In this document: positions 19,674-44,547 of the stretch, piece after piece
Position numbering within the stretch: the first letter of the stretch is position 1
Layout of the letters: every line of letters starts with the position of its first letter
NCBI GenBank assembly: GCA_965214705.1
Contig: OZ243972.1
Location: 576,001 to 640,000 of the forward strand
Length of the DNA stretch: 64,000 nt
Direction of reading: 5' to 3'
Source: Alphaproteobacteria bacterium
Lineage (GTDB): Bacteria; Pseudomonadota; Alphaproteobacteria; UBA828
Program-made: the position numbers and the translations under genes
The notes under the pieces: generated by a model
Told to the model about the DNA's origin: nothing
What the model saw: the letters and a program-made list of their open reading frames with translations, nothing else
The model's database searches: none

Positions 19674-21590
19674 CCCAAGTTGGCACTTTTCCGCTGCCTG
19701 TGTTCCCTATTGGTTTGATTCAACGCGATATTTTTCTCGGTCGATTCCAACATGGCCCCACATTTTGTGAGATTCTGTCAGCTCATCAGACGGGTCCTCG
19801 TGCGGTGGATGGCGGGGTCCACGCCCGCCGCCGAGGAGATTGCGGCAACCTCGGCGGCCGGGCGCGTGTCCTGGCGGTTGACGATCAAGGTGCCGTCGGT
19901 CTGGCGCAGGCGCGTGGTGATCCGCACCCAGGTCCGCATGCTCTCGCGGATCGACGCCCAGCACTTGTGGATGCCGCGCGCGGCCAGCCGGGTACGGATC
20001 AGATGCACGGCGTGGTAGGCCAGCACGGCGATCAGCAGGTGGGCCGCGATGCGCCGGTCGAGCTGGTGCCAGATCGGGCGAAGGCCGAGCTCGGATTTCA
20101 GGCTCCGGAATGTCGCCTCGATATCCGTGATCCGCCAGTACGTCCGCAGGACCGTCTCGATGTCCCAGTCGACGTGGCTGGTGCGCAGCACATAGGCACC
20201 GGCGCCCTCATCGGCCTCGTCGTATCGCGGCCTGCGCTTGAAGCGCACGGCGGTGGCATTGGGGCCGGTTTTCGCCCTCTCGACCGTGATCTCGTAGTGC
20301 CTGGCGACGGCGGAGAAGCGCTGCTTGAGGCGGCCTATGCTCTCCAGCACCTTGTCGTAGCGCTTGAGGCGGCCCTTGACCGGGAGGCCGCCGTGGAGCC
20401 TTTCCAGCGCCGCCTCGAAGCGGTTCCGCCTCAGGCCGATGATCGCGTTCTCGGCCTTCTTCTTGCCCTCGCTGACGACGTAGAGCCGCGCCTCGCCGTC
20501 CTCGCTGGCAAGCCGCCAGGCCCGCACCTCGTGGCGCGCGCTGGTGATCAGCAGGGCCTCGGGTCCGCCCTCGGGCGGCGCAGGCCTGGCACCGCGGCTG
20601 ACCGCGATCCAGTCGTAGCCCTGCTCGCCCAGCCACGCGATGTTTTTCTCGGTGGCGATGCCCGCGTCCATGACCACCGTGGGCTTCGGCGCCGTGCCGC
20701 CGCACACCGCCTCGAGCCGCGCCAGCGCCTCGTGCAGCGTGCCCGGCTCGCTCACGTTGCCCGGCAGGATCTCGCAACTGCGCGGGAAGCCCGCGCCGTC
20801 GAGCGCCAGCGCCAGCGTGATGAGGGGACAGTCGTCGCGCTTCTGCTTGGAGCGCCCGAACCTGGGAAGCTCGCCGCCCGTGTGGCCGTGGTAGTGGACG
20901 TTGGTGAGATCGTAGAAGGCGATCGTCTCGGGCAGGTCGAGCAGTGCGCGCTCACGGTTGAACAGCTCCCGCTGGATGGCGGCGCGGTGGCGCCAGAGCA
21001 GGTCGCCGATGCGGTAGAGCGTCTTGCGCCGCAGCGCCTTGCGGTCGCCCTCCAGGCCCAGGAGCTCGGCGGCCGCGCTGTCGTGGCGGAGCCAGCGGCT
21101 GGTATCACGCTCGCTGGCGGGATGGACCATCCTGGCGACGATCAGCGCGCTGGCGATGCGCCCGTCGCGGCCCTTGATGTCGAGGCCGTGGAGGATTTCG
21201 GCGAAGCCGAGGGCGTCGAGGGCCTTGAGGCACAGGCGCTCGCAGCCGACCGTGCGCGGGTTCTCGTGCTCCAGGGTATCGAGGTCGACGGTGGCGATGT
21301 CGGGCTTGCGCGCCTCTTCCTGCATCGCCTCGACGCGGAACCCCCTGGCCCTGAGCTTGGCGACGATGTCCTCGGCTGCGGCCCGCACATCCGCCTCGCC
21401 CTCGAACAGCGGCGGCTTGCCGTGAAGCAGCGCCTCGGCGAGTTCGGTGACGGCCTTCCACTTCTCGCGCGGCACCGGATAGTCGGTGCCGAGATTGAGC
21501 AGCGTCCTGTGGCGCACCTTGTCGCCGACGCGCTGGGCGAGCACGAGGCGATGGCTTCGGACCGGCTGGCCGGCCTTGTCGGTGTGACAA
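19674..21590 (-). mobile_element. IS1634-family element, 5'-truncated
   Basis: Terminal CCCAAGTTGGCA at 19674. The transposase frame runs upstream to CHTDKAGQPVRSHRLV, then enters unrelated AT-rich DNA with no second end. Confidence 0.75.
19778..21544 (-). CDS. IS1634-family DDE transposase (native start lost)
   Basis: RTLLNLG, YDLTN, FGRSKQKRDDC, PGNVSE, VMDAG, YVLRT, IEATFRSLKSELGLRPIWH. Confidence 0.85.
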   Translation of the reverse strand: MLAQRVGDKVRHRTLLNLGTDYPVPREKWKAVTELAEALLHGKPPLFEGEADVRAAAEDIVAKLRARGFRVEAMQEEARKPDIATVDLDTLEHENPRTVGCERLCLKALDALGFAEILHGLDIKGRDGRIASALIVARMVHPASERDTSRWLRHDSAAAELLGLEGDRKALRRKTLYRIGDLLWRHRAAIQRELFNRERALLDLPETIAFYDLTNVHYHGHTGGELPRFGRSKQKRDDCPLITLALALDGAGFPRSCEILPGNVSEPGTLHEALARLEAVCGGTAPKPTVVMDAGIATEKNIAWLGEQGYDWIAVSRGARPAPPEGGPEALLITSARHEVRAWRLASEDGEARLYVVSEGKKKAENAIIGLRRNRFEAALERLHGGLPVKGRLKRYDKVLESIGRLKQRFSAVARHYEITVERAKTGPNATAVRFKRRPRYDEADEGAGAYVLRTSHVDWDIETVLRTYWRITDIEATFRSLKSELGLRPIWHQLDRRIAAHLLIAVLAYHAVHLIRTRLAARGIHKCWASIRESMRTWVRITTRLRQTDGTLIVNRQDTRPAAEVAAISSAAGVDPAIHRTRTRLMS

Positions 21591-23122: not shown

Positions 23123-26100
23123 TCGAGAGGCAGTCCGCCGCCGGTTGTGGGGGCCGGCTGCCGTGCCGGAAGTTCGTGCCAAGGACGATCGAAGGGCGGG
23201 CCGGCGGGACGAGTCACAGCTCGAGGCCCATGTCGATGTCGCGCTCCTTCGCCTTGCTGGCTTCGAGCTCCTGCTGACGGCGTTCGATCTCGGCCTTGTC
23301 CGATGCCAGGGTGGATTCGATCCGCGCGGAAAGGCGCCTGCTCTCGTCCTCCGCGCCCGGACGGCGGTCGAGATGCCTGCCGTAGGTCTCGGGGTCGTCC
23401 AGGATGCGGCGGCAGCCGTCGAGGGCGCGGAGGGCGCCATCGCGCCATTCGCCGTAGGCGGGATCCTCGGTGACATGGGCGCTGTTACTGGCAGCAATCG
23501 TCGCGTGCTCTTCGCGCTGCCGGATCGAGGCGGCGGCCGCTGACAGGGCGCGCTCCAGGAAGCGTTCCGCCGCCTTGCGGTTCTCCCTTTCCGCCTCGTC
23601 CAGGACCGTTGCCTTCTCCGCAGGCGGCATCGGCCAGTCGGTTTCCGGCGAGCCGCCGAACTGTTCGCCGATGGCCTTCAGCGCCGACATCTGCTCCGCA
23701 GGCGAAGTCTCCAGGGCCTCGATCAGCGCCTCGCGGTCGTCGGTCAGCAGCACCACGTTGTCGCGGGCGCGGGTGAGTTCCACATAGAAGGTCGCCTGGT
23801 CGGCAACTCCCCCGCGCTCGGTATCCAGGACAGCGATGGCCCGATCGCAGGTGATGCCCTGGGCAGCGTGCACGGTGGACGAGTAGGCGTGGTCCAGGTG
23901 GTGAAGCTGTGGGTCGTCGCGGGCCATGACGATCTCACTTCCGTCCTGGGTGCGTATCGTGACGTTCACCCGGCGGATGGACAGCACTTCCGCATGTTCG
24001 CCGTTGATCAGGCCGCGCGCAGAATCGTTGCGAGTCCAGCGCACCCGGTCTCCCGCCTTGAGCACCATCGGCCGGGTCTCGAAGAGGTCGAGGCGGTAGC
24101 GGATATAGCCGGAGGGGTCGATTGTGCGCTCCTTACCGCCGGGGAGGGTGAGCACGAGGCGCTCGTCTCCCACCTCCGTCACACGGCAGGCATCGCCGGC
24201 CTTCGCACGGACGCCGTAGACGTCGTGGTGGAATATGGCGACATCGCCCTCCCGGTAGTTGGCGATGTCGCCCTTCTGGGAGCGGGTCAGGTGGAGGTTG
24301 ACGTAGCGCTCGATCTCGAGCTCTGGGCCGTGCAGCACCCCTTCGTCCTCCAGGCCGTGACGGACGGCGGCGTTGATCTCGGCCCTGAGCTCGTGCGTGG
24401 GCGCGAGGATGGCCGTTCCGGGTCGCAGGTCGGGATCGAGGTCGAGCCAGAGTTGTGCCGCCTTCCTGCCGAGTTCGTCGCTCGCCGTCTCCAGGACGCC
24501 GTTGCCGAGTTCCTCGACCGCAAGGCGCGGCTCGTCCGCCACCATGTGCAGCACCGCCTGCCGCAGGTCCGCATCGCGCTGGCGTACCACCTCCTCCATC
24601 CTGGCGGTGGGCAACCCTGCGTCCTGCAGCAGGGCGAAGGGCTGGCCGGCCTCCACGGCCCGCAGCTGCCTCCTGTCGCCGATCAGCGCGAGGCGCTCGA
24701 CGCCGGTCTCGGCGGCGATCCGGGTCAACGCCCGCATCTGGGTGTTGCCGACCATCGAGGCCTCATCGAGGATCAGCACCGAGCCGCCGAGCGCCTTGCG
24801 CGCTTCCTCCGTCCTCTCGGGCGAGGCGATGCCGTCGCCCACGTCGCGATAGCGCGTGAGGAACCATTGCAGGGTGCGGGCCGGGATATCGGCTTCGCCT
24901 TCGAGCACGCGCGCGGCGCTTGCCGAAGGAGCCAGTCCGATAATCGGCCTCTCGCCAGCCAGCGCCGCCACCGTGCGCAGCATGGTGGTCTTGCCCGAGC
25001 CCGCGTGCCCCTGCACGCCCACGGTGACATGAGGCGAGAGCAGGATTCCGCGCACCGCGTCGCGCTGGCCGGGGTTCAGCCCGGCCGCGTCGAGCCTCGC
25101 CTCCACTGCCTCCGCCGGCGCCAGGCTTCGTCCGGCGTCCAGGCCGGCGCGCATGCCGGCGACAATGTCGCGCTCGGCGTTGCGCGCCTGGTCGGTGACG
25201 AAGGCCAGGTCGGCCCTTCGCGCCGTCACCTCGATCAGGTGTCCGTCGCGCCGGAGCCGGGCGATGCCGACGTCCAGCGCTTCGAGCGAGTGCCGGCCGC
25301 CCCCATGGGCCAGAGCCCAGGCGCGCAGGTCGTTGGCGGAGAACACAGTGCGCCGCTCCTCCAGGTGCTCGACGGCCTGCCGCACCACGGCAAGCGCCGA
25401 CGGCTGCGCCCGCGGCTCGGGCATAGGGGTTGCCGATGCGCCGATCCCGTCGCGGCCCCTTGCGATGTCCCGGTCGCGCGCCGGGCCGAGTTCTTGCGCC
25501 CGTTCCTTCCATGTCCGGTGCAGGACCTGCCGATCCGGCTCGGCCTTGCGCTGCCGTGTGTAAAGCGCCGCCTGCTGTGCTCTCGCCGGCGTGTTCTCCC
25601 AGCCACGCTCCTGCATGTAGTCCAACAACTCGCGGCGGCGGGTCGAGAAGGCGTCCAGCATCGGCTTGCCGTAGCCCGCGATCTCGAACCCCGGCATCCG
25701 CCCCACAAGCGTCGGCACCGTGGCGTAGCCGATTTTTTCGAGCCCCATGCGCAGCTCGTTGCGGTAGTAGGCGCCGATCAGCAGCTTCGAGCGCTCCACC
25801 GCGGTGAACTCGGCGCTCCGCCACTCCCCGTTCCGGCCGCGCGTCATGTTGGCGATCACCGCGTGCGTGTGCAGCTGCGGGTCGAGGTTGCGGCTCGCGA
25901 GATGCCGGAAGGTCGCCGCCGCCATGCCGTCGGCCTCCACCCTGGGCCTGCGGCCGGTCTCGGGCTCGTAGCTCCGAGTCTGCAACAGCGCGGTCTCAAT
26001 GAAGCCCAACGTGGCGCGCACCGCCTCGTCGTGCGCCCTCACCACCCGCGCGCCGGTCTTCGGCGCCGCGTAGATCAGCGCTTCCAGGGATACCGACTTG

Positions 26101-26418
26101 GGAGCGGAAAAGGTCACGTCCACGCCGGGCCTGTGCTGGTGCTCGCCGTCGCGGAGGCGGCCGAGGCGAATGTCGGTGCCGGGCACGTAGCCCGCAAGCA
26201 GGGCCTCGAAGCGTTTCGGCTTGACCGGCCCGTGCAGGCCCATCAACGCCGCTGCCTCGCCGTACCAGATGCCGTAATGGGGCGCGGCATCAACCGGCAC
26301 CGTTGGAGCCTGTACCGATGACGGCGAATCGGGGTGTCGTTGCCCTTACACGCTGAGCGTGTCCACGGGGTCTTGCCGGAAGGCGCGCCCCAATTCCTCG
26401 AAAGGAAAGGGCAACGAC

Positions 26419-27462
26419 ATGGATGTCTATATCGGGCTGGATGTATCGCTGGCAAGCACGACAATCTGCGTGATCGGCGAGAAGGGCAAGATCGTGACCG
26501 AGGCGCAGATCGCCAGCACGCCTGAAGCGCTGGTCGTGTTCATGGGCAAGCTGGAGCACGAGATCGCGGCGATCGGTCTTGAGGCCGGTCCCCTGTCCCA
26601 CTGGCTGCACAAGGGGCTGACCGACGCCGGCTTCGAGGCCGTGCTGATGGAGACCCGGCGGGTGAAGGCGGCGCTGAAGGCGATGCCGATCAAGACGGAT
26701 CGGCGGGATGCCGAGGGCATCGCGCGTCTTCTGCAGATGGGCTGGTTCAGGCCGGTGCACTGCAAGTCGGTGTCGTCGCAGGAGATGCGCGCACTTCTGA
26801 CCTCGCGCAGCTCCGTGAGGGACGCGCTCACCGATATGGAACTCTCGGCGCGCGGCGTGTTGCGCAACTTTGGCCTGAAGCTGGGCCAAGTCTCGAAGGG
26901 CCGCTGGGAGGCCCGCGTCCGGGAGTTGATCGCAGGCAACGCGATGCTGGAGGCCGCCGTCGAACCGATCCTGCGCGCGCGGTCGGCTCTGCGCCGCGAG
27001 CTGGCCGGCCTGGAGAAGCTGGTCCGCGACCTGGCCAGGGAGGATCCGGTATGCCGGCTCCTGATGACCATGCCCGGCGTGGGCGCGGTCGTGGCCCTGA
27101 CCTTCAAATCGGCGATCGACGATCCCGAGCGGTTCCGGAGATCGAAGGATGTCGGCCCCTGGGTGGGACTGACGCCGGGACGGGACCAATCCGGCGAGCG
27201 AGATATTGTCGGCGGCATCACGAAGTGCGGCGACGCAGGTCTGCGGGCCGCGCTCTATCAGGCGACCACGGTGATGCTGAACCGCACCGCCGGGCCGAAC
27301 TGGCTGAAGGCCTGGACGCTGCGTCTGGCGAAGCTCCGCGGCAAGAAGCGGGCGACCGTCGCCTTGGCCCGGCGCATCGGCGTGGTACTTCACCGGATGT
27401 GGCGGGACGGCACCGAGTTCCGCTTCACGCGCGAGGAGGCAATGGCGCTCCAGACGGCATAG
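26419..27462 (+). CDS. IS110 DEDD recombinase/transposase
   Basis: YIGLDVS, GLEAG, KTDRRDA, PGVG, GLTP...QSG, A.VALAR. Confidence 0.95.
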   Translation: MDVYIGLDVSLASTTICVIGEKGKIVTEAQIASTPEALVVFMGKLEHEIAAIGLEAGPLSHWLHKGLTDAGFEAVLMETRRVKAALKAMPIKTDRRDAEGIARLLQMGWFRPVHCKSVSSQEMRALLTSRSSVRDALTDMELSARGVLRNFGLKLGQVSKGRWEARVRELIAGNAMLEAAVEPILRARSALRRELAGLEKLVRDLAREDPVCRLLMTMPGVGAVVALTFKSAIDDPERFRRSKDVGPWVGLTPGRDQSGERDIVGGITKCGDAGLRAALYQATTVMLNRTAGPNWLKAWTLRLAKLRGKKRATVALARRIGVVLHRMWRDGTEFRFTREEAMALQTA

Positions 27463-27539
27463 GCGCGGCTGCATCCCACCGACAATCAGCAGCGAGAGGA
27501 GGAAAGAGCCGCGCCTGAAGGTGGCGATCCACCGCTATC

Positions 27540-27780
27540 CCCTCGCCGGGACGCGGTTCCCGATGATGCACGTGCGAGCGGCTGTTGCCGAATCGCTTCT
27601 TGGCATTCGAGCACGCATACCAGATCGGCACTCGGGAATCGTCTTGGACCGGGTATGAAGTTGGCAGCCGCTCTGCGCTGACCACGGACGGAAGCGAGAG
27701 CCTGGCGACGGGGACATATCCGGGGGTCCCGCTTCCTGCACCGTGCCGCGTCGACGAGCCCGTTAGCCGCCAAGGCAACC
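27540..27780 (+). ncRNA. Putative bridge/seek RNA of the IS110 element (boundaries approximate)
   Basis: GCGAGCGGCT (27574-27583) is the reverse complement of the right flank 27912-27921; TACCAGA (27618-27624) equals the left flank 26263-26269; a hairpin lies between them. Confidence 0.7.
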
Positions 27781-28026
27781 ACCTGTGTCGATCATGCTGA
27801 CCATGCCTGCGAGAGGCCCTGCCGCAGGCGACGGTGCCCCATGTTCGAGTGGCCGTGCCAGGCCGGAACGTTGTGAAGATCCCTGCTTGACATCAACCGC
27901 CCCATTACGGAAGCCGCTCGCCTTGCGGTGCTCCGGGTCATTTCTGGCGTAGTAGCCGTCCGCCTCGAAGTAGTGCACCGTCGTGGCGGCGGCCTTCAGG
28001 CGGATGACGGTCGCGACCATGGTTGC

Positions 28027-28899
28027 CTACCGGTCCGTCGTGCCGTCGAATTCCTCTTCGGGCGGCACCTTGGTCACGCCAACGTCAGGGTAGAGGGGGA
28101 CCGTCAACTCCGGTGTGGGTCCCACGTGCATCTGGCACCTGACAAACTCGTCGAGTTGACGCGCCCTGGACGTGCAGGCGGCGAGCGTCGGGGAGTAGTG
28201 CTCCGCCACGAAATCGTTCCACGCGTACCGCGGATCGCCGAAGGACATGACGTTCGCCTCCCGCTGCAGCACCGCACCCAGCACGAAAAAGACGAACGCG
28301 GCGGCCGCCACTGCGAGACCGAACCGCCAGTGCCGCCACCGCAGTCTGCCGGAGATGCGGGACAAGTCGTTGCGGAGGGAGCGCAGCTGGTCGCCGAGCG
28401 CCGTCGCCGATTGGATCATGTCCTCAAGACTGTGGGCGGCCACGGCCGACTGCCGGTCCGTGGCGTGGATACGCTGGTCGAGGGCCTCGCCCTGCGTCTT
28501 CAGCGCGGCGGCGGCCCCGGCCAAGGCGCGCGCTGTCTCCGCCGCCCCGTCCCGGCCCGCGGCCAATTCTGCAGCCTTGGCAAGCGCGCGGCGCGCGTTG
28601 GCAACCGCCTGAGCCAGCGCCGCCGTCTCACGAACCAACTCCTTGGCCGTGTCGTGCTTCGGCAACCGGGCGTCCTGGAGTGCGTCGATGCGGGAAGCCG
28701 TCGCCCTTACCGTCGCGAGGATCTCGGCGATGGCGTTGTCGTGCGCATCGGGTTGCGGGGATGGCGCCGCCGCAGGTGCCTTCTCGACCGCATCAGCCGG
28801 CCGGCCTGCCGCCCCTTCCGGTCGGCCGACCAGCAGGTCGCGGCCATCAAATGCGTCTTTGCCGGATTTCGGACCGCTGCGCCTCTCCTCCGGCGCCAT
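28027..28899 (-). CDS. Hypothetical coiled-coil protein with one TM helix, directly upstream of the relaxase
   Basis: GGAGG RBS before ATG 28899; TM segment FGLAVAAAAFVFFVLGAVL; ends 6 nt before the relaxase start. Confidence 0.7.
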   Translation of the reverse strand: MAPEERRSGPKSGKDAFDGRDLLVGRPEGAAGRPADAVEKAPAAAPSPQPDAHDNAIAEILATVRATASRIDALQDARLPKHDTAKELVRETAALAQAVANARRALAKAAELAAGRDGAAETARALAGAAAALKTQGEALDQRIHATDRQSAVAAHSLEDMIQSATALGDQLRSLRNDLSRISGRLRWRHWRFGLAVAAAAFVFFVLGAVLQREANVMSFGDPRYAWNDFVAEHYSPTLAACTSRARQLDEFVRCQMHVGPTPELTVPLYPDVGVTKVPPEEEFDGTTDR

Positions 28900-29007
28900 G
28901 ATCGCCTCCCCGCTCAAAAAAACGTTGTTCGTGGTTTGCTTAGTGAGAGATATCGGAACCGGCAGGCCGAATGACAAGAGCCTCGGACGTTCAAGTCCGG
29001 GTCGGAT

Positions 29008-30536
29008 GAGCCACTTGCAAAACTCTCGGGCACGGTGCGTTCGTCCCGGGAGTTCGATATGAGGGCAGCGGTTGGTCGAACGTAACGCGAACGATCGGTC
29101 GAATCGACGGTTCGACATGCCGCATGGCCACCGTCGGGGAGCCGATTTGTCGCGAGCGAGGGCCGTTGCGGTCACATTCGTGGCCCGGCGCCGGGATGCG
29201 GGCGCGGCTCACCGTGCCCCCATCGAGGGAGGCGTGTTCCGGCATGACAGGGACAGAACCGAAAGTGAGGTTCAAGTCAGAAGGCGCACCAATTGGTCTA
29301 CCGTCAGCGCCAGGATGCCGAACATCGCGTGGCAGTAGACTTTGGCATGGCCGCGCACGTGGACATGGCGTCCACCGCAGTTGTCCTTCAGCCCGCCATT
29401 GATGCGCTCGACGTTCGAGCGTTCGCTGTAACGGTCGTCCGCCGGGTGGCTGTGGCCGATACGGCGCCGCGCCTTGGCCTCCCGCGCCAAGTCCTCTTTG
29501 AAGCCCCTGTCCCGAGGAATTGATGTCGATGATTGGGACGTGGCCCAACAGATAGCTGTGCCAGCCGATCTCAGGCGCGTCGTAGGCTGAGTCCATGAGA
29601 TCGTACAGATTGGTCACGCGTTCGGCGCTCATGGTCGCCAGCGGGATCGCGACCTGACTGTCGTGCAGCGAGGCAGACGTCAGGATGCAACTGACCGGGA
29701 TGCCGCCATCGGCGGCATCGATGTGCAGCTTGTAGCCGATCCACGACGTGGTGTGGCCCTTGGCGTTTCGCTTGGTGCCGACATCGCAGGCTCTGGGCAG
29801 ATCGTCGAGCATCTGCGGCAGGGTCATGTCGAGCTGGCGCTCCACGCGGCGCTGCTCCTTGGGCCGCTCCTCACCCTTGCGCGGGCGACCGCGCTTGCGC
29901 TTCGGCTTCTCCTTCTTGCGTTTGCGCTGAGGCTTCTCGCGCGCCTCGACCGCCGTCGAATCGCGCGAGACATGCCCCACCAGGTGGTCGCCGAGGGTCT
30001 GCTTGATCAGCGCCTCGTGCAGGCGTGCGGGCAGGGCACTCTCGGAGAACTCGGCGAAGGCCCGTGAAAAGGTCGCCTCGCTCGGCACTTCTCCGGCATA
30101 GTTCCAGCCGCACAATCGGCGCAACGTCTTGTCGACCTCAAGGCGCTCGATCAGTGCGCGTGTCGTGGGTACGTCGAACACCGCCTTGGCGATGAAGGCG
30201 CGCGCCAGCGCCGCACGGTCCTCGACCGGCCGACCGGGCAGGCCATGAAAATGGGGAAGGAAGCTCTCGACCCGCGCAAACTCAAGCACAGTGACGAAGC
30301 GCCGATACCTCTCGCCGAGTGGCCCGAGCTCCTCCTCAAGCCACGGGAAGAGATCGCCTTGAAGGGAGTTCAAGAATCTGGTTAGTGTCTGTCCCAGCGA
30401 CATGGGACCGGGGACCGCTCTCCCTGTCGATGTCTTCGGAAGCCCGACAGGAACAGAGAGCGGTCCCGATTCCCAGAACAATCTGCATCACATGGCGGCA
30501 AAATCCCGCTCAACGGCGAAACTCTGCAAGTGGCTC
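29008..30536 (-). mobile_element. IS5/IS1182-like insertion sequence
   Basis: Terminal inverted repeats GAGCCACTTGCA at 29008 and TGCAAGTGGCTC ending at 30536; no clear TSD. Confidence 0.8.
29272..30403 (-). pseudogene. DDE transposase with a frameshift near 29518
   Basis: PSEATFSR, SRDSTA, WIGYKLH, LHDSQ, LMDSAYD; the C-terminus (RY.ERSNVERINGGLKD..G...VRGHAKV.CH.MFG) is in another frame; could be a sequencing indel. Confidence 0.8.
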
Positions 30537-30592: not shown

Positions 30593-31770
30593 GTGTCCTG
30601 ATTCCGAAGTTCGCATAGCTATGATTGGGCTGGCGCGAGTTCGAGGGTTCTCAGGCAGAAGCGCTTGATGGAAGCCAGGATTTCGTCGGCTGACTTGTGC
30701 CAGCGGAACGGCTTGGGGTCCTCGTTGACGGCCTCGATGTACGCGGTGATCGCCTGCTCCAACTCGACGGTCGAGCGGTGAACCCCGCGACGGATCTGCT
30801 TCTCCGTCAGATCGGAGAAGAACCGCTCCACTTGGTTGAGCCACGACGCCGAGGTCGGCGTGAAGTGGACATGCCAGCGAGGCCGCTTGGCGAACCAGGC
30901 GCGGACTTCCTTCGTCTTGTGCGTCGAGTAGTTGTCCATGACGATATGGATGTCGAGATCCTCGGGCACGTTGGCCTCGATGTGGTCCAGGAACTTGCGG
31001 AACTCTCGGCTTCGGTGACGGTGGAAACACTTGCCGATGACCTCGCCGGTGGCGACGTCGAGGGCGGCGAACAACGAGGTCGTGCCGTTGCGCTTGTAGT
31101 CATGGGTGCGCCGCTCAACCTGGCCGGGCCGCAGCGGCAGCAGGGGCTGGGTGCGGTCGAGGGCCTGAACCTGGGACTTCTCGTCCACACAGAGAACCAT
31201 GGCATGCTGCGGCGGGTCCACGTACAGGCCGACGATGTCGCGCACCTTGTCCACGAAGTACGGGTCCGCCGACAGCTTGAAGGTCTCGCTGCGGTGCGGT
31301 TGCAGGGAAAAGGCCTGCCAGATGCGATGGATGGTCGAGGCGCCGTAACCGGTGGCGCGCGCCATCGAGCGCAGGCTCCAGTGGGTGGCGTCGGGCGGTG
31401 TTTCCTCCAGCGTCATGCGAACGACCTCGGCAACCTCGTCGTCGCCGATGCGCCGGGGCGCGCCCGAACGCGGTGCGTCGTGCAGACCGTCGAGGCGGTG
31501 TGCGGCGAAGCGGCGGCGCCACTTGCCGACGGTCAACTCCGTGACATCCAACAAGGCCGCAATCTCCTTGTTGGAGAGCCCGTCCGCTGCCGCCAGCACG
31601 ATCCGTGCCCTCAGCGCCAAGGCCTGCCACGACTTGCGGCTCCGGCTCAGCCGATCCAGCTCCTTGCGCTCTTCATCTGTCAGGATGATGTCCACCGCTG
31701 TTCTCGCCACGGAATGAGCCTCCTCGCTTCAATCAACAATGCAGTAATACGAACTTATGGATCAGGACAC
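30593..31770 (-). mobile_element. IS630-family element, complete
   Basis: Inverted repeats GTGTCCTGAT...ATCAGGACAC, each flanked by TA within CTAG. Confidence 0.92.
30619..31710 (-). CDS. IS630 transposase
   Basis: [42 protein letters not shown]. Confidence 0.95.
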
Positions 31771-37346: not shown

Positions 37347-38513
37347 TCACGAACGAGACACTGAGATGGGCTCACCGCCATGCATTGCCCGCGCGACGGC
37401 AACGCCAATACGCTCCGCCGCCGCCTCGGTCTCGCGGTCACCGACGTGGGCGTAGCGCAGTGTCATGCTCGGATTTTTGTGACCCAGAAGGCGGGAGACA
37501 ACCGGCAGCGGGACGCCTTGCAGGACGGCGTGGCTGGCGAACGAATGTCTGAGGTCGTGAATCCGCACGTCCTCGATCCCGGCTTCCCTTCGCACAGAAC
37601 GCCAGAGCGGCAGGTGATGCGAAAGAGGACGACCGGGGTTCGACGGCGCAGGGAAGACGTAGGCGCTCTCCGAGCGCGACTGGCGCTCCAGAATGGCGCG
37701 AGCCTGCACGTTCAGAAAAACCCGCCGCGGCCCGGTCTTCGCATCGATCAGATTGAGCGTGTCCCCGTCCACGTCCTGCCAGCGCAGAGTCAGGACCTCG
37801 CTCTTCCGGCAGCCGGTGAGCAAGAGAAGACGGATGACGTCCGCCTGTCGCGCGCGCGACGGTCGCGCGTGATCGTGGCGATCCAGGGCGTGATGAAGTC
37901 GGCGGACTTCCTCGCGCGACAAGAAGCGGGTGAGCTTGGCACCGGGGTTCCACTTGATGCCACGCGCGGGGTTCGCCTGGATATGGCCGCAGACGATCGC
38001 ATGATTGAGAACCCGGCTGAGCAGGTTCAACGCCTTGTTGGCCGCGCCCGGCGTGGTCCGGCTGCATTCGTCGAACCAGCGGGTCACATCGGCGCGGGTA
38101 ATCCGGTCCAGCGGCAACGAGCCGAAGGCGGGCAGCAGTCGCACGGAGACGATCCTGGCAAAGACTTTCCGCGTCGACGGCTTGCCCCGCTCGAAACACG
38201 TCCGCCCCGGACCCGCGACAAATTCCTCGAAGGTGGGCACCTTGTCGCGCCGCGCCTGGCCGGATCGTGCGCCGCTCTCAATGGAGACGCACTGGCTGCG
38301 CGCCTCCTCGATCTTCATCAACGACGCAGGCCCGAGCGTGATCCTGCGCGCACTGTCCTCGCCCTTCCGCCAGTATATGAAGCTCCGGTGCCCCGACGGC
38401 CGCACCCGAACGCCGAGACCCGCATGGCGCGTGTCCCAAACGGTATACTCGCGGGCCGCCGGTACCAGCTTCGCGACACTTGCGTCAGTCAGACGCCTCC
38501 TCTTCACGGCCAC
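37347..38513 (-). CDS. Tyrosine integrase with N-terminal arm-binding domain (pair 1, gene B)
   Basis: WD...GLGVRVRPSG; catalytic TGCR, K, HDLRH, LGH, Y. Confidence 0.92.
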   Translation of the reverse strand: MAVKRRRLTDASVAKLVPAAREYTVWDTRHAGLGVRVRPSGHRSFIYWRKGEDSARRITLGPASLMKIEEARSQCVSIESGARSGQARRDKVPTFEEFVAGPGRTCFERGKPSTRKVFARIVSVRLLPAFGSLPLDRITRADVTRWFDECSRTTPGAANKALNLLSRVLNHAIVCGHIQANPARGIKWNPGAKLTRFLSREEVRRLHHALDRHDHARPSRARQADVIRLLLLTGCRKSEVLTLRWQDVDGDTLNLIDAKTGPRRVFLNVQARAILERQSRSESAYVFPAPSNPGRPLSHHLPLWRSVRREAGIEDVRIHDLRHSFASHAVLQGVPLPVVSRLLGHKNPSMTLRYAHVGDRETEAAAERIGVAVARAMHGGEPISVSRS

Positions 38514-38516
38514 GGA

Positions 38517-38740
38517 TCAACCCTCGAGGGCTGCGCCGACAACGTCCACCGCCTCGCGCACCATGGCGTCGGACAGGTGGATGTACTTCAGCGTCGTCGC
38601 CGGATTGCGGTGTCCGAGAAGCCGGCCGATGGTCAGCACCGTCTCGCCCTGCGCGAGCGCCATGCTGGCATGCGTGTGTCGGAGATCGTGAAGGCGGACA
38701 TCGTGCAGGTCAGCTTCTTCCCTTACACGATGCCACGCAC
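38517..38740 (-). pseudogene. C-terminal fragment of a tyrosine integrase (pair 1, gene A)
   Basis: WHRVREEADLHDVRLHDLRHTHAS..GRLLGH..TTLKY; N-terminal part replaced by the pair 2 element. Confidence 0.85.
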
Positions 38741-38853
38741 CTTCGGTTCTAAGTGACTGATTCGATTGCAATGGTCTTCCGTTTCTATTGCCACAGGGCG
38801 CGGAATGCAAGCCCGTTCCGCACCCCGCTGCAACAGATCGGAGACGCGCGATC

Positions 38854-39981
38854 ATGCCGACCATCCACCTCACCCAGCGCCGGGTCGACGCCCTTCGGCC
38901 CCGCCGCAAGGTGCGCGATGTCCGGGACGCCGAACTCAAGGGATACGGCGTCCGGGTCATGCCCTCCGGCACCAGGCGCTACTTCATCCACAGCCAGCAC
39001 AGGGGCAAACGGGTCTGGAAGATCATAGGCGACGCGGCGGCGATCACCGAGCCCGAAGCACGGGCCAGGGCCAGATTGATGCTGGCTGCGCTGCGCGACG
39101 GTCGGGAGCCAGATGCGGCGGACGCCGGCGGCACCCTCTTCGAGACCGTCGCCGAGGAGGTCTTCGAGCGCTACGGGCGGCGCTGGAAGCCCCGCACCCT
39201 GGAAGTGAACCGGGCCTACCTGCGAAGGCAGATACTGCCTTTCTTCGCGGGCAGGCCCATCGGAGAGATAACACGGGAGGACGTGCGGGCCTGGTTCCGC
39301 GGGCTCCACGCGACGCCCGCCGCCGCAAACCGCTCGGCGCCCATCCTCTCGGTCATCATGCAGCAAGCCGAGGTCTGGGGATACCGCCCGGAGGACAGCA
39401 ACCCCTGCGCCGGCATCCGTCGCTACCGGCAGGGGCGGTCCGAGCGCTTCCTCACCCCCGAGGAGTATCGCCGCCTCGCCTGCGTGCTCACCCGGCACGA
39501 GGCCAGCCGCCCCCTGCACGTGGCCGCCCTGCGCCTGCTGCTGCTCACCGGGTGCCGCAAGTCGGAGATCCTCACCCTCCAATGGTTCTCCTACCGGGAG
39601 GGGCGGCTCTATCTGCCGGACAGCAAAGTCGGCCCGCGCACGGTCTGGTTGTGCGAGGCGGCACGCGATGTCCTCGACCGCCTGCCCCGGTCGTCCGGAT
39701 GGGTCTTTCCAGTCGGCGGTTTGCGCACCCCGTGGCTGTGGCTGGATTACTTCTGGCGCGGCGTGAGGGAGGAAGCCGGGCTGCAGGATGTCCGCCTGCA
39801 CGACACCAGACACTCATACGCCAGCATGGCGCTGCTCTGCGGCGAGAGCGTGCGCACCGTCGGCCGCCTGCTCGGTCACGAGAAGGCGTCGACCACCCTG
39901 AAATACGCCCACCTGTCCGACGCCACAGTCCGCGAAGCGGTCGAGACCCTGTCTCCCGTTCTGTCGGGGAGGCAGGCGTGA
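38854..39981 (+). CDS. Tyrosine integrase (pair 2, gene A)
   Basis: GYGVRVMPSG; TGCRKSEI, DSK, HDTRH, LLGH, TLKY. Confidence 0.92.
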   Translation: MPTIHLTQRRVDALRPRRKVRDVRDAELKGYGVRVMPSGTRRYFIHSQHRGKRVWKIIGDAAAITEPEARARARLMLAALRDGREPDAADAGGTLFETVAEEVFERYGRRWKPRTLEVNRAYLRRQILPFFAGRPIGEITREDVRAWFRGLHATPAAANRSAPILSVIMQQAEVWGYRPEDSNPCAGIRRYRQGRSERFLTPEEYRRLACVLTRHEASRPLHVAALRLLLLTGCRKSEILTLQWFSYREGRLYLPDSKVGPRTVWLCEAARDVLDRLPRSSGWVFPVGGLRTPWLWLDYFWRGVREEAGLQDVRLHDTRHSYASMALLCGESVRTVGRLLGHEKASTTLKYAHLSDATVREAVETLSPVLSGRQA

Positions 39982-41616: not shown

Positions 41617-42345
41617 TCAGGAGCGGTTCTTGAAGCGCCAGCTCTCGTTGCCGGTCTCGATGATCTCGCAATGGTGAGTGAGACGATCGAGCAGGGCCGT
41701 GGTCATCTTGGGGTCGCCGAAGACGGACGGCCACTCGCCGAAGGCGAGGTTGGTGGTGATGATGGTGGAGGTGCGCTCGTAGAGCCGGCTCATGAGGTGG
41801 AAGAGCATCTGCCCGCCGGTCTGAGCAAAGGGCAGGTAGCCGAGTTCGTCGAGGATGACGAAGTCGCGGCGGCCGAGCTGGTCTGCGGTGCGGCCCTGGC
41901 GTCCGGCGCGGACCTCGGCCTCGAGGTGGTTGACCAGGTCGACGACGTTGAAGTACCGGCCGCGCGCGCCCTTTCGGATGCAGGACCGCGCGGTGGCTGT
42001 GGCAAGATGGGTCTTGCCGGTGCCGGTACCGCCGACCAGGACGATGTTGCGCTTGCTCTCCAGGAAGCCGCCCGTGGCGAGCTCCCGGATCAGGGGCTCG
42101 TTGACCGGCGAGGCGGCGAAGTCGAAGTCGGCCAGCTCCTTGGCGGTGGGCAGCTTGGCGGAGGCCATCTGGTACTTGATCGAGCGCGCCTTCTTGTCGG
42201 CGATCTCGGCCTTCAGCAGCGCACCGATGATCTGCTGCACCGGGTGACGGCGCTTGAGGCCGTCGGCGAGGATGTCGTCGTAGACGGCGCGCATGCCGGC
42301 GAGCTTGAGCCGGGTCATCATCTCCAGCACCTCATGACGCTCCAT
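41617..42345 (-). CDS. istB: IS21 helper ATPase IstB
   Basis: [31 protein letters not shown]. Confidence 0.95.
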
Positions 42346-43849
42346 GACCGGCCTCCCTCAGGCTGTCGTAGCGCTGACAATCGGCAACCGGGGTGTGGCG
42401 AAGCTGCAGGCTCTCGGGCGTCGGAATGTCTGCCGGCGGCGCCGGCTCACGCTGCCGGGCGAGGATGTTGAGCACGACGTCGGCACTGCAGACACCATCG
42501 GCCAGCGCTTCGGCACAGGCCGCGTCTACCGCCTCCAGCCCGTCCTCCAGAACCGCTGCGAGGATCCTCACGATCTGCCTGTCGCCGTCGTCGCGGCCGG
42601 AAAGCCGGCCGCGCATGCGCCCCAGCGCGCCGGGCAGGTCCCAGTCCTTGAAGGGCGCGCCGTTGCGCAGCGCGCCGGGCTTGCGCTCCAGAACCGGCAC
42701 GTAATGCCACGGATCGTAGGCGATCTCCCCGCGCCCGAAGCGCCGGGAATGTTCAGCGACGGTCTCGCCATCCTGGCGGATGACGATCCGATCGGCATAG
42801 GCCCGCACATCCACAGGCTGCCCCACCGCGCGGGCGGCGACGCTGTAGTGGTTGTTGTCGAAGCGCACCAGACAGGTCTTGGAGACAGACGCGCCATTGG
42901 TGGCATGGAAGCCGTCGAAGGGGCCGCGGTAGGCCATCAGGAAGCGCTGCTCCTCCTCGAACACCTGCCACACCGTCTTGCCCGCAATCGTCGGATGCGG
43001 CCGCTTCTTGGCGTCCTCGATGCACCGATCCATAAGCCAGGCGTTGATCTCGTCGTAGGAGCGGCCCCGCGGGCTGGGCACGAACATGCGGCCGCGGACG
43101 TGGTCTACCTGCTTCTCGACCTGACCCTTCTCCCACGCCGCGCCAGGCGTGCAGGCCACCGGCTCGACCAGATGATGCGAGCACATCTCAAGGAAGCGGC
43201 GGTTGAAGACGCGCTCCTTGCCCACGAACACTGTCTGCACCGCCGTCTTCATGTTGTCGTAGATGCCCCGGGTGCAGACCCCGCCGAAAAAGCGGAAGGC
43301 ACGATCGTGCGCCTCGAACACCATCTCCTGACCTTCGCGGGGAAAGATCTGGACCAGATACATCCGGCTGTGGCACAGCCGGATGTGCGCCGCCTTCACC
43401 CGGGTCGTGGTGCCAGACAGAACCGCGTACTCGTGGCTCCAGTCGAACTGGTAGGCCTCGCCGGGATCGAAGACCAGCGGCACACAGGCCTCGGACGGCG
43501 TCAACAGCCGCCGCCGACGCCGCCAGGCCTTGGCATAGCGGCGTACCGCGTCATAGCCGCCCTCATAGCCCAGCGCCGCAAGGCCCTCATGAAGCCGCAG
43601 AAGAGACAGCCGATCACGGCGCTTCTTCTTCTCGTTGGCCTCCAGTTGCCGCTCAAGCTCGTCCACCCACGGCCCCAGCTTCGGCATCGGCTGGATCGCG
43701 CGCTCGTAGCTCGACGAGGTCTCGTCGCCGCGCAAAACCTTGCGCACCGTGTTCCGGGAAACCCTCAAATCCCGAGCGATCTTCTTGATCGGAACGCCCT
43801 TCACGAAATGATCCCGACGGATCCGTGCAATCGTCTCCACAGTCAGCAT
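42332..43849 (-). CDS. istA: IS21 transposase IstA
   Basis: N-terminal [26 protein letters not shown]. Confidence 0.95.
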
Positions 43850-44547
43850 CTCCCCCTCGCCTCGTCCGTCCAACGACGAGGCGTGTTCATGGTCACCAAT
43901 CCAAGGGGGGTCAATTTTGGACGCCGATCACCCCCAAGAGGGGGGCACTTTTCCACGCTTAACAACAGCCTCGAGGATGTGCGCTTCGTCCACGATCAGC
44001 AGATTCAGGCGCGCGAGGAACCGCTTGAAGGCGGGAACGGCGAGGTTGCGCATCAGCCACGCGTGACCGACATCTGGAGTGGCGATGACGATCCGCGCCC
44101 TCTCAAGCGCTTCCTTGCGATCCGGTTGCGGCACGTCGCCGGTGACGATTGCAATCCACTCCCCGGGCATCCCCGCCATCTCGAGAGCCCGCCGCCAGCT
44201 TACATCCTGGTCGGCCGCGAGCGCCTTGAGCGGATAGAACACCAGGATCCGGGCATCACCGTCATCCTGAAGCGTCTTGAAAGCCGCGGCCTGGAACACA
44301 AGCGACTTGCCAGACGCGGTTCCCGTTGAAAGCACCACGTTGCTGCCGGCCGCAAATGCTTCCAGTGCGAGGGCCTGATGCCGCCAGAGAGCGCCTTTGA
44401 GCGCGTCGTACGCCAGTAGCCAGCTGCTGACGGAGCCTCTCCGGCAAGTATCCGGGACTGGCAAGATCCTCTCTTCGCGCGCCGATAGCTCAAGCCGAGC
44501 GACGACGGAGTGACCCGCGTCCCTCAGTTGTCCCTCGAATACCTCAA

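Follow-up and report, generated by a model that had tools for sequence, protein, structure and literature searches.

Guide and target covariation in an IS1111-group element that interrupts a relaxase gene, and the bridge (seek) RNA it probably encodes

The subject of this report is an insertion element of the IS1111 group found in a 64,000-nucleotide stretch of DNA from an alphaproteobacterium (contig OZ243972.1, positions 576,001 to 640,000; hereafter the window, whose own numbering is used unless a contig is named). The element lies in a relaxase gene at the 14-mer TACC-AG-CCGCTCGC, and, taking the reading as a whole, a bridge (seek) RNA of two modules is very probably encoded in the non-coding region 3' of its transposase gene. 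A model working on the letters of the window had claimed as much in outline (hereafter the original prediction). Its statement that the non-coding region encodes its own target was borne out by the covariation of guides and flanks across 33 guide sets, and its proposal of two guides reading opposite strands agrees with the guide order published for IS1111 elements, in which the complement of the top strand lies 5' of the match to the bottom strand (PMC11187229). The segments of the insertion site and the two target guides are as follows.

26263..26266, plus strand: left target TACC, predicted to be read by the left target guide (placed by empty sites L102 and L105)
26267..26268, plus strand: core AG, left copy (2-nt overlap of flank matches; empty sites)
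27912..27913, plus strand: core AG, right copy (2-nt overlap of flank matches; empty sites)
27914..27921, plus strand: right target CCGCTCGC (empty sites L102 and L105)
27574..27584, plus strand: right target guide GCGAGCGGCTG, complementary at 11 of 11 positions to the top strand of C-AG-CCGCTCGC
27618..27625, plus strand: left target guide TACC with core AG, then AT; 6 of 6 to the target, by identity to the element's own left flank

Both guides had been located in the original prediction, as GCGAGCGGCT at 27574-27583 and TACCAGA at 27618-27624. These letters are present, and it was their register that had to be changed, to a right guide of 11 out of 11 and a left guide of TACC plus AG. The AT that follows TACCAG (27618-27623) corresponds to the first two bases of the element's left end.

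Relatives were sought by scanning one genome per species, and the best 80 loci carried transposases 67-95% identical. Sixty of these loci, together with the window copy and a second copy from the same genome (copy 2), made up 62 elements, chosen for canonical ends AG|ATGCCGTAATGGGGC ... GCCCCATTACGGA|AG with flanks, whose last 460 nt were aligned. The alignment consists of a conserved scaffold in which the only hypervariable blocks are the two target-guide positions, and these track the flanks of each element, as the following right guides illustrate.

L024: right guide GCTGCGTCTTG, site A-AG-ACGCAGC
L043: right guide CTATCCGCT, site AG-CGGATAG
L077: right guide TATCCGTCT, site AG-ACGGATA
L087: right guide ATCAGTGCT, site AG-CACTGAT
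L086: right guide AAAGCCCGCT, site AG-CGGGCTTT

Covariation was assessed on 52 unique pairs of element and site, 10 of the 62 elements having been dropped for flanks that were too short or for duplicate guides and site. The longest complementary run between a right guide and its own site averaged 6.4 nt, compared with 3.55 nt in 2,560 mismatched pairs, and left guides were identical to their own left flank at 3.88 of 5 positions as against 1.26 of 5 for the flanks of other elements. When sites were permuted among the 33 guide sets, the observed means were reached in none of 10,000 permutations for either target guide. It is because of this covariation across relatives, and not because of the window sequence alone, that the match of the left guide is regarded as solid. 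For the window sequence alone, shuffling the non-coding region 300 times gave a right-guide run of at least 11 nt once and a left 8-mer match 30 times, so that the latter is by itself within chance. Such a frequency would suit an explanation in which the matches have no targeting role, being pieces of flank copied by imprecise excision or recombination or mere coincidences, and tandem or nested right ends (see below) do show that aberrant recombination takes place. This explanation is, however, hardly credible: the guides have fixed places in the conserved scaffold, some 290 and 330 nt in from the right end and on opposite strands, their sequences vary in step with the flanks across the 33 guide sets, and the 11-nt match is itself rare among shuffles.

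A common structure for the predicted RNA was obtained by RNAalifold on 29 diverse sequences, and its pairs were counted on a trimmed version of that structure. Four helices result.

27537..27552, plus strand: conserved 5' hairpin before the target-binding loop (helix 1), 98.6% of cells paired, no compensatory change
27553..27569, plus strand: 5' arm of the outer stem, GCGGTTCCCGATGATGC (helix 2), 13 pairs, 97.3% paired, 3 compensatory
27628..27642, plus strand: 3' arm of the outer stem (helix 2), closing the target-binding loop
27587..27612, plus strand: inner hairpin GCCGAA...TTCGAGC (helix 3), 7 pairs, 6 of them with compensatory changes
27662..27684, plus strand: donor-module hairpin (helix 4), 7 pairs, 99.5% paired, 2 compensatory

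Altogether the structure has 32 pairs, with 97.6% of cells paired and compensatory changes at 11 pairs; none of 500 shuffles reached it, and controls slid along the alignment were 26-41% paired. G.U pairs occur, as at pair 27/123 (GU 15, GC 10). The two target guides form the unpaired strands of an internal loop that is bounded by the outer stem on one side and by the inner hairpin on the other, the architecture of a target-binding loop. The stems named in the original prediction, TGCCGA/TTGGCA and CCGAT/ATCGG, did not hold: only 68.4% of their cells were paired, and 202 of 500 shuffles were as good. An arrangement with two internal loops is supported in their place. Two further three-pair helices proposed by RNAalifold in the donor loop (6-8/169-171 and 173-175/186-188) were rejected; they show no compensatory change, and one would bury the donor guide.

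The structure bears on whether the guides act as RNA or as DNA. The guide segments could work as DNA, single-stranded or melted in the synapse, in the manner of the guide sequences of IS200/IS605 elements; covariation alone does not separate the two, and the contigs available here give no proof of a transcript. A DNA guide is nevertheless very improbable, since the guides lie in loops of a structure whose compensatory changes and G.U pairs are typical of a folded single strand, and the recombinase family is annotated and solved as RNA-guided. For four IS1111 elements, moreover, purified transposase carried an RNA from the guide region with it, and transposition depended on this RNA (PMC11187229). 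For 93% of IS1111 elements a bridge RNA has been predicted in the right end (PMC11208160).

The second module of the bridge RNA would hold two guides for the element's own ends.

27652..27656, plus strand: right donor guide GGTAT, which can pair with ATGCC of the left end if one G.U is allowed
27688..27694, plus strand: left donor guide ACGGA with core AG, identical to the right end plus core

The original prediction had called the candidate near 27688 the weaker one. It is real and, like the ends themselves, conserved. In 59 of 62 elements the left donor guide repeats the five bases that close the right end of that element, and its variants follow those of the ends (ACAGA in 8 of 10, ATGGA in 3 of 4 and ACCGA in 2 of 2). 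In 54 of 62 elements the five bases that open the left end are complemented exactly by the right donor guide. At position 27654 the window copy reads GGTAT and copy 2 GGCAT, the form of most relatives; GGTAT is paired with ATACC ends in 5 of 7 elements.

Beside the chance-level left match given above, several points weigh against a bridge RNA of this design. The permutation and structure tests ignore kinship among the elements, and elements L030, L033, L041 and L044 sit at sites that match their own guides poorly. As the structure was derived from the alignment on which it was scored, the percentage of paired cells is partly circular, although the compensatory changes are not. No supported stem closing the donor loop emerged from the alignment, and the right donor guide is followed by GA rather than CT, so that it does not pair with the core, whereas all four guides of IS621 include the core (PMC11208160). 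A search of the non-coding region against Rfam 15, with E values up to 10 admitted, gave no matching family and returned chance-level matches only (E at least 1.1), none of them in the guide region, the presence of such a model in Rfam being unchecked. RNA-library contigs of relatives about 5% different cover the transposase gene and 27378-27711, but the four runs are assembled contigs that may hold DNA and carry no information on ends, strand or level, and they do not prove transcription; uncovered stretches, such as 27580-27639 in three of the four runs, likewise carry no meaning. Finally, folding 27529-27739 as a single sequence gave a structure no more stable than shuffles (z -1.17), in which the right target guide pairs with the loop of the donor hairpin. 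This fold was rejected: the hairpin is unchanged in relatives whose guides differ, and the fold that the alignment favours is another.

The pairing in the single-sequence fold arises because the loop of the donor hairpin, CAGCCGCTC (27665-27673), mimics the target, being a 9-nt copy of C-AG-CCGCTC. The hairpin sequence is common to relatives with other guides (L020 and L021). The mimicry may be a coincidence; a role in self-masking is conceivable.

The element that carries these guides has the following parts.

26269..27913, plus strand: IS1111-group element, 1,645 bp with one core copy counted
26269..27911, plus strand: element body, ATGCCGTAATGGGG...CCCCATTACGGA
26272..26284, plus strand: left subterminal inverted repeat CCGTAATGGGGCG (sequence and inverted-repeat scan of relatives)
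27898..27910, plus strand: right subterminal inverted repeat CGCCCCATTACGG (sequence and inverted-repeat scan of relatives)
26419..27462, plus strand: transposase open reading frame (ORF), 347 aa, with a DEDD/RuvC-like N-domain and a Transposase_20 C-domain

The left junction reads ...CGTACCAGA|TGCCGTAATGGGG (at greater length ...CGCCGTACCAGA|TGCCGTAATGGGGCG) and the right junction CCCCATTACGGA|AGCCGCTCGC (at greater length CGCCCCATTACGGA|AGCCGCTCGCCTTG). The transposase ORF starts with an ATG after GGAAAGGG, and its product matches DEDD_Tnp_IS110 (PF01548, E 4.2e-14), Transposase_20 (PF02371, E 4.3e-22) and the NCBIfam model 'IS110 family RNA-guided transposase' (NF033542, 243.8 bits, cut-off 140); it is distantly similar to the solved recombinases IS621 (8wt6, E 1.3e-12) and ISCro4 (E 5.2e-14). 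IS1111 elements are set apart from the IS110 group by a transposase of 330-350 aa with the motif GL-P----S(T)G, a downstream non-coding region and long subterminal repeats (PMC11187229), the repeats being of 11-13 bp with asymmetric extensions of 7 or 6 nt on the left and 3 nt on the right. In the window element the motif is present as GLTPGRDQSG, non-coding DNA amounts to 150 nt upstream of the gene (26269-26418) as against 449 nt downstream (27463-27911), and the subterminal repeats CCGTAATGGGGCG and CGCCCCATTACGG are perfect over 13 bp. With the left core copy counted in the element, the extensions are 5 + 1 nt for this 13-bp repeat, or 7 + 3 nt if the repeat is taken as 11 bp. On account of its domains, the size of its transposase, the motif, the long 3' non-coding region and the repeats, the element was assigned to the IS1111 group, and it is an ordinary member of the known class of RNA-guided IS1111/IS110 elements.

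The core is AG and the insertion made no target duplication, as is observed directly in two sister genomes that hold the site intact. Nine relaxase loci of sister genomes from the same genus were searched for an empty site; seven had a seed match and two of the seven (L102 and L105) were exact, their unbroken relaxase genes reading CGCCGTACC-AG-CCGCTCGCCTTGCGG, which comprises both flanks of the window element. A third locus (L103) has AT instead of AG. For copies 2 and 3 of the element, found elsewhere in the genome, the left-flank (...CCAG) and right-flank (AG...) BLAST matches share exactly 2 nt in dozens of host repeats that carry no insertion, whose sites are GTCC-AG-CCGCTCGC and TACC-AG-CCGCTGGC, respectively. 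In run X15, one contig connects 26267 with 27914 through a single T, the L103 type (1,646 letters skipped, 1 inserted); of the four lines of evidence, which include the intact paralogs given below, this joint is the weakest, its shorter side being only 26 letters. The four observations are independent and set the core to AG and the element to 1,645 bp. The original prediction had reconstructed a GA core and a 17-mer site, TACCA-GA-AGCCGCTCGC, encoding ASGFWY. GA does occur at both junctions and the 17-mer keeps the frame. AG is likewise present at each, however, shifted by one base leftward at the left junction and by two bases rightward at the right one, and intact sites fall short of the 17-mer by 3 nt. 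The true site is the 14-mer, at codons 34-38 of the relaxase (ASGWY); neither of the two closest intact paralogs of the same genome (97% and 94% protein identity) has the F, their sequences being ASGWYGE and ASGWCGE. A plausible reconstruction of junctions from one copy may thus be one codon off and yet in frame.

The interrupted gene is read from the minus strand and lies on both sides of the element.

23214..26266, minus strand: C-terminal part of the relaxase, about 1,016 codons past the break (TrwC, AAA_30 and SF1 helicase domains)
27914..28020, minus strand: N-terminal part of the relaxase, about 36 codons (MVATVIRLKAAATTVHYFEADGYYARNDPEHRKASG; tblastn to paralog N-termini)

By its domains (TrwC, PF08751, E 2e-72; AAA_30, E 5.9e-46) and by a match to the NCBIfam model MobF (NF041492, 226.7 bits, cut-off 100, starting at profile position 41), the gene encodes a relaxase-helicase of the MOBF/TrwC type, and the earlier claim that the element splits a relaxase gene agrees with these matches. 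The 36-residue N-terminal piece holds Y17, Y23 and Y24, which would correspond to the catalytic tyrosines of TrwC. Because the insertion cuts these residues off, the gene would be inactive. The C-terminal part has no internal stop, and on this ground the insertion is probably recent.

The genome (G000) contains two further full copies of the element, copy 2 on contig C3 and copy 3 on contig C1, and several fragments. Each of the two copies lies inside a multicopy repeat: copy 2 at GTCC-AG-ACGCTCGC in an IS66 transposase gene, within a stretch coding for SERLDYEPAKF (Pfam DDE_Tnp_IS66 and zf-IS66); for copy 3 the site is GACC-AG-CCGCTGGC, and the gene around it codes for an IS1634 transposase (NCBIfam, 257.2 bits). 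One right-end fragment adjoins sequence of unassigned identity at AG-CCGCTCGC, so that three full copies and one fragment occupy sites of the form nnCC-AG-(C/A)CGCT(C/G)GC, all in one orientation. A divergent copy has the guide GGGCCCACT beside AG-TGGGCCCCT, with 9 of 9 matching, and another right end adjoins AG-CCGCCAAGG within the non-coding region of a copy of the element itself. The right-guide 11-mer has 139 exact copies in the genome against about 23 expected from composition; 44 of the 139 lie in IS66 as GTCCAGCCGCTCGC, and TACCAGCCGCTGGC occurs in 64 copies in the IS1634 element. At relatives' sites, 77 reading frames abutting the junctions of 50 insertions were examined, these being merely the longest open frames in GC-rich DNA and their count a rough one. 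No TrwC domain was found among them; transposase or integrase domains were present in seven frames, one at each of seven sites, ordinary genes such as those for ABC transporters, CheB and HlyD were seen in others, and for most frames Pfam returned nothing. Insertion goes by the 14-mer and not by the gene.

These data bear on the full reading of the original prediction, in which the guide is programmed against the W-x-G region of MOBF relaxases and the element, with its GA core and 17-mer site, serves as a mobilisation switch. In its support, the right guide of the window copy fits the relaxase site perfectly while the sibling copies, one base off in each target guide, fit less well; 17 of 19 other relaxase paralogs examined keep CC-AG at the site position, and the exact 14-mer occurs in two sister genomes. 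Beyond the length of the empty sites, what makes this reading very unlikely is that the other copies lie in IS66 and IS1634 transposase genes, that the genome offers 139 exact 11-mer sites, 44 of them in IS66, that none of the 19 paralogs carries the exact 14-mer (they show 1-5 mismatches and have no insertion at that position), that TrwC is absent from the 77 frames at relatives' sites, and that none of 17 neighbouring ORFs scanned encodes a type IV coupling protein or a secretion protein. Copies in unrelated targets had been named in the original prediction as an outcome that would speak against it; the genes are indeed unrelated, but their 14-nt sites are nearly identical, which favours RNA-guided targeting. 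The relaxase gene load of the genome is in itself unusual, with more than 30 TrwC-type paralogs in 7.9 Mb and homologues in 17 of 18 genomes of the same genus searched. A family-wide preference for mobile genes, for which a first list of nine frames at eight sites (L022, L028, L030, L031, L033, L045, L056 and L057) had been drawn up, is not claimed: L056 is an ABC transporter, only the seven mobile frames stand and most frames match nothing.

Copy 2 (G000:C3:3040426-3042092) has several single-base insertions in its transposase gene relative to the window copy, reflecting either decay or long-read indel errors. Its right flank begins with A (AG-ACGCTCGC), and 44 other IS66 copies have C. At a further locus, L099 (G000:C3:1724218-1724982), two right ends lie in tandem, one adjoining AG-CCGCTCGCTGTCGGG and the other AG-CCGCCAAGGC, which equals 27765-27776 of the window, in the element's own non-coding region. 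The arrangement reflects recombination that was nested or involved a half-site, and its site matches the guides poorly. Next to the tandem ends, an ORF at L099:3156-4244 (G000:C3, about 1725155-1726243) has a DruA domain (Druantia, E 3.5e-22) and a DDE_Tnp_1-associated domain. Elements L030 and L031, on public contigs of metagenome-assembled genomes, also have a second right end or bridge-RNA region a few hundred bases downstream of the first, and in L031 it is the outer flank, AG-GCGAGCTAT, that the guide TAGCTCGCCT fits.

The window copy differs from copies 2 and 3, which are 97% identical to it, by one base in each target guide (G for T at 27576 and T for G at 27618), and three of its 45 differences from copy 2 (27576, 27618 and 27654) fall within the 25 guide positions. 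The changes in the target guides of the window copy are exactly those that give the fit to the relaxase site, 11 of 11 and 4 of 4. The sibling guides GCUAGCGGCUG and AGACC fit the occupied IS1634 site, at 11 of 11 with one G.U and at 5 of 5. These differences, a single case, are suggestive of retuning. A wider proposal would have guides evolve within the genome by point mutations that retarget copies on a very short time scale, after which the element would, in this symbiont genome laden with repeats, preferentially colonise other mobile elements (the relaxase, IS66, IS1634 and its own non-coding region) as harmless landing pads or in a conflict between elements; we hold this to be rather unlikely.

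In the mechanism proposed, the bridge RNA would be about 150-170 nt long and come from the 3' non-coding region. Its target-binding loop (27553-27642), the internal loop between outer stem and inner hairpin, would read the insertion site, and its donor-binding module (about 27643-27700) would read the ends, GGTAT or GGCAT pairing with ATGCC of the left end and ACGGA-AG matching the right end plus core. The DEDD recombinase and the RNA would bring together the target and the circle junction CATTACGGA-AG-ATGCCGTAAT, with strand exchange at AG. Reversal of the reaction would leave the locus as TACCAGCCGCTCGC and restore the relaxase frame exactly (ASGWY), as expected from the published mechanism of the family. 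That the RNA is made and bound, that the circle forms and that excision occurs are all presumed by analogy with the family, and it is doubtful that excision would restore any transfer function. The circle junction may also provide a promoter.

27887..27892, plus strand: TTGACA, candidate -35 box, with a 17-nt spacer and then GAAG|AT across the circle junction

Only the circle junction would add the AT that turns the end into GAAGAT and completes this candidate promoter, which seems to fit the junction promoter described for these families (PMC11187229). By manual count, 35 of 36 distinct right ends have TTGAC at one constant distance from the terminus (22 with a stricter pattern). The element was found in sponge, coral and marine metagenomes.

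Among known systems, the window element most resembles the IS1111 seekRNA elements ISEc11, ISPa11, ISKpn4 and ISPst6 (Siddiquee et al. 2024, PMC11187229), with which it shares a DEDD transposase in the 330-350-aa range with the motif GL-P----S/TG, a long downstream non-coding region, subterminal repeats of 11-13 bp, the lack of target duplication and the 5' position of the top-strand complement. As described there for ISEc11 and ISXne4, relatives are naturally redirected by swapping two guide blocks. The target module of 90 nt (27553-27642) is comparable in size to their seekRNAs of 82-96 nt, and the two modules together to their 154-nt long form. Unlike in those elements, the target CC-AG-CCGCTCGC lies in coding sequence of mobile elements and not in attC sites, REP sequences or transposon ends, and the published extensions of 7 + 3 nt are reached only with an 11-bp repeat. 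Moreover, the seekRNAs of those elements have been shown experimentally, whereas the window element is known here from its sequence. With the bridge RNA of IS621 (Durrant et al. 2024, PMC11208160; structures 8wt6-8wt9) it has in common separate target and donor modules, a 2-nt core present in both target and donor (here in three of the four guides) and a recombinase of similar sequence. In contrast to IS621, whose RNA lies in the left end, the RNA would come from the right end, 3' of the gene; the guides follow one another in the opposite order, AG takes the place of CT as the core, the subterminal repeats are long and the right donor guide lacks the core. Like IS4321/IS5075 and the IS1111-attC elements, it inserts inside other mobile elements in one orientation; the targets of those elements are structural ends (a transposon inverted repeat or attC), whereas here the target is a 14-mer in the coding sequences of a relaxase and two transposases, and, unlike in the IS4321/IS5075 class, most of the relatives' sites scanned had no mobile-element domain.

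RNA-guided targeting by IS1111/IS110 elements was already demonstrated in 2024, and the known picture is unchanged. What is added is a natural data set of 62 related elements with 33 guide sets, in which four guides can be read from an alignment beside real insertion sites and empty sites. For this subfamily it fixes the AG core, the natural guide lengths (about 8-11 nt on the right and 4-6 nt on the left) and the mismatches that are tolerated, which is useful for annotating such elements and for choosing orthologues for engineering. For the host, the insertion has disabled one of more than 30 relaxase genes, and in principle the element could depart again scarlessly.

The relaxase gene lies in a patch of mobile DNA, and among the 17 neighbouring ORFs scanned no resistance gene was found. 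Further members of the patch in the window are given below.

19778-21544: IS1634-type transposase
28991-30481 and 30619-31710: DDE transposases
37347-39981: two tyrosine integrases
41617-43873: IS21 pair

Directly upstream of the relaxase start, a 382-aa ORF (28027-29175, minus strand) has no Pfam family and a faint NCBIfam match, and its span runs into the 3' end of the ORF at 28991-30481, a DUF772/DDE transposase. Elsewhere in the genome, a second, unrelated IS110-family element of 1,603 bp, with a 421-aa ORF, the core CT and the ends CTTATGGGGC...GCCCCATAGGAT, was found at G000:C1:1326792-1328394 (inside copy 3), G000:C1:2642147-2643749 and G000:C3:617968-619570. It occupies the same position, GAACTGG-CT-GAAGG, in the transposase gene of two diverged copies of the element studied here, and GAACTGG-CT-GAAC elsewhere; it is an RNA-guided element that targets the transposase gene of another. 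A second IS1111-like family (for example at C1:40897 and C3:429912 of G000), with the ends GA|TGCGGTATTGGGG ... CCCCATACCG|GA, is present in at least 25 copies that always have the same flanks, CACCACCGCTTG and ATCTGGCTTGACTACGA; these constant flanks may represent either a target that is itself repeated or a piece of some larger unit.

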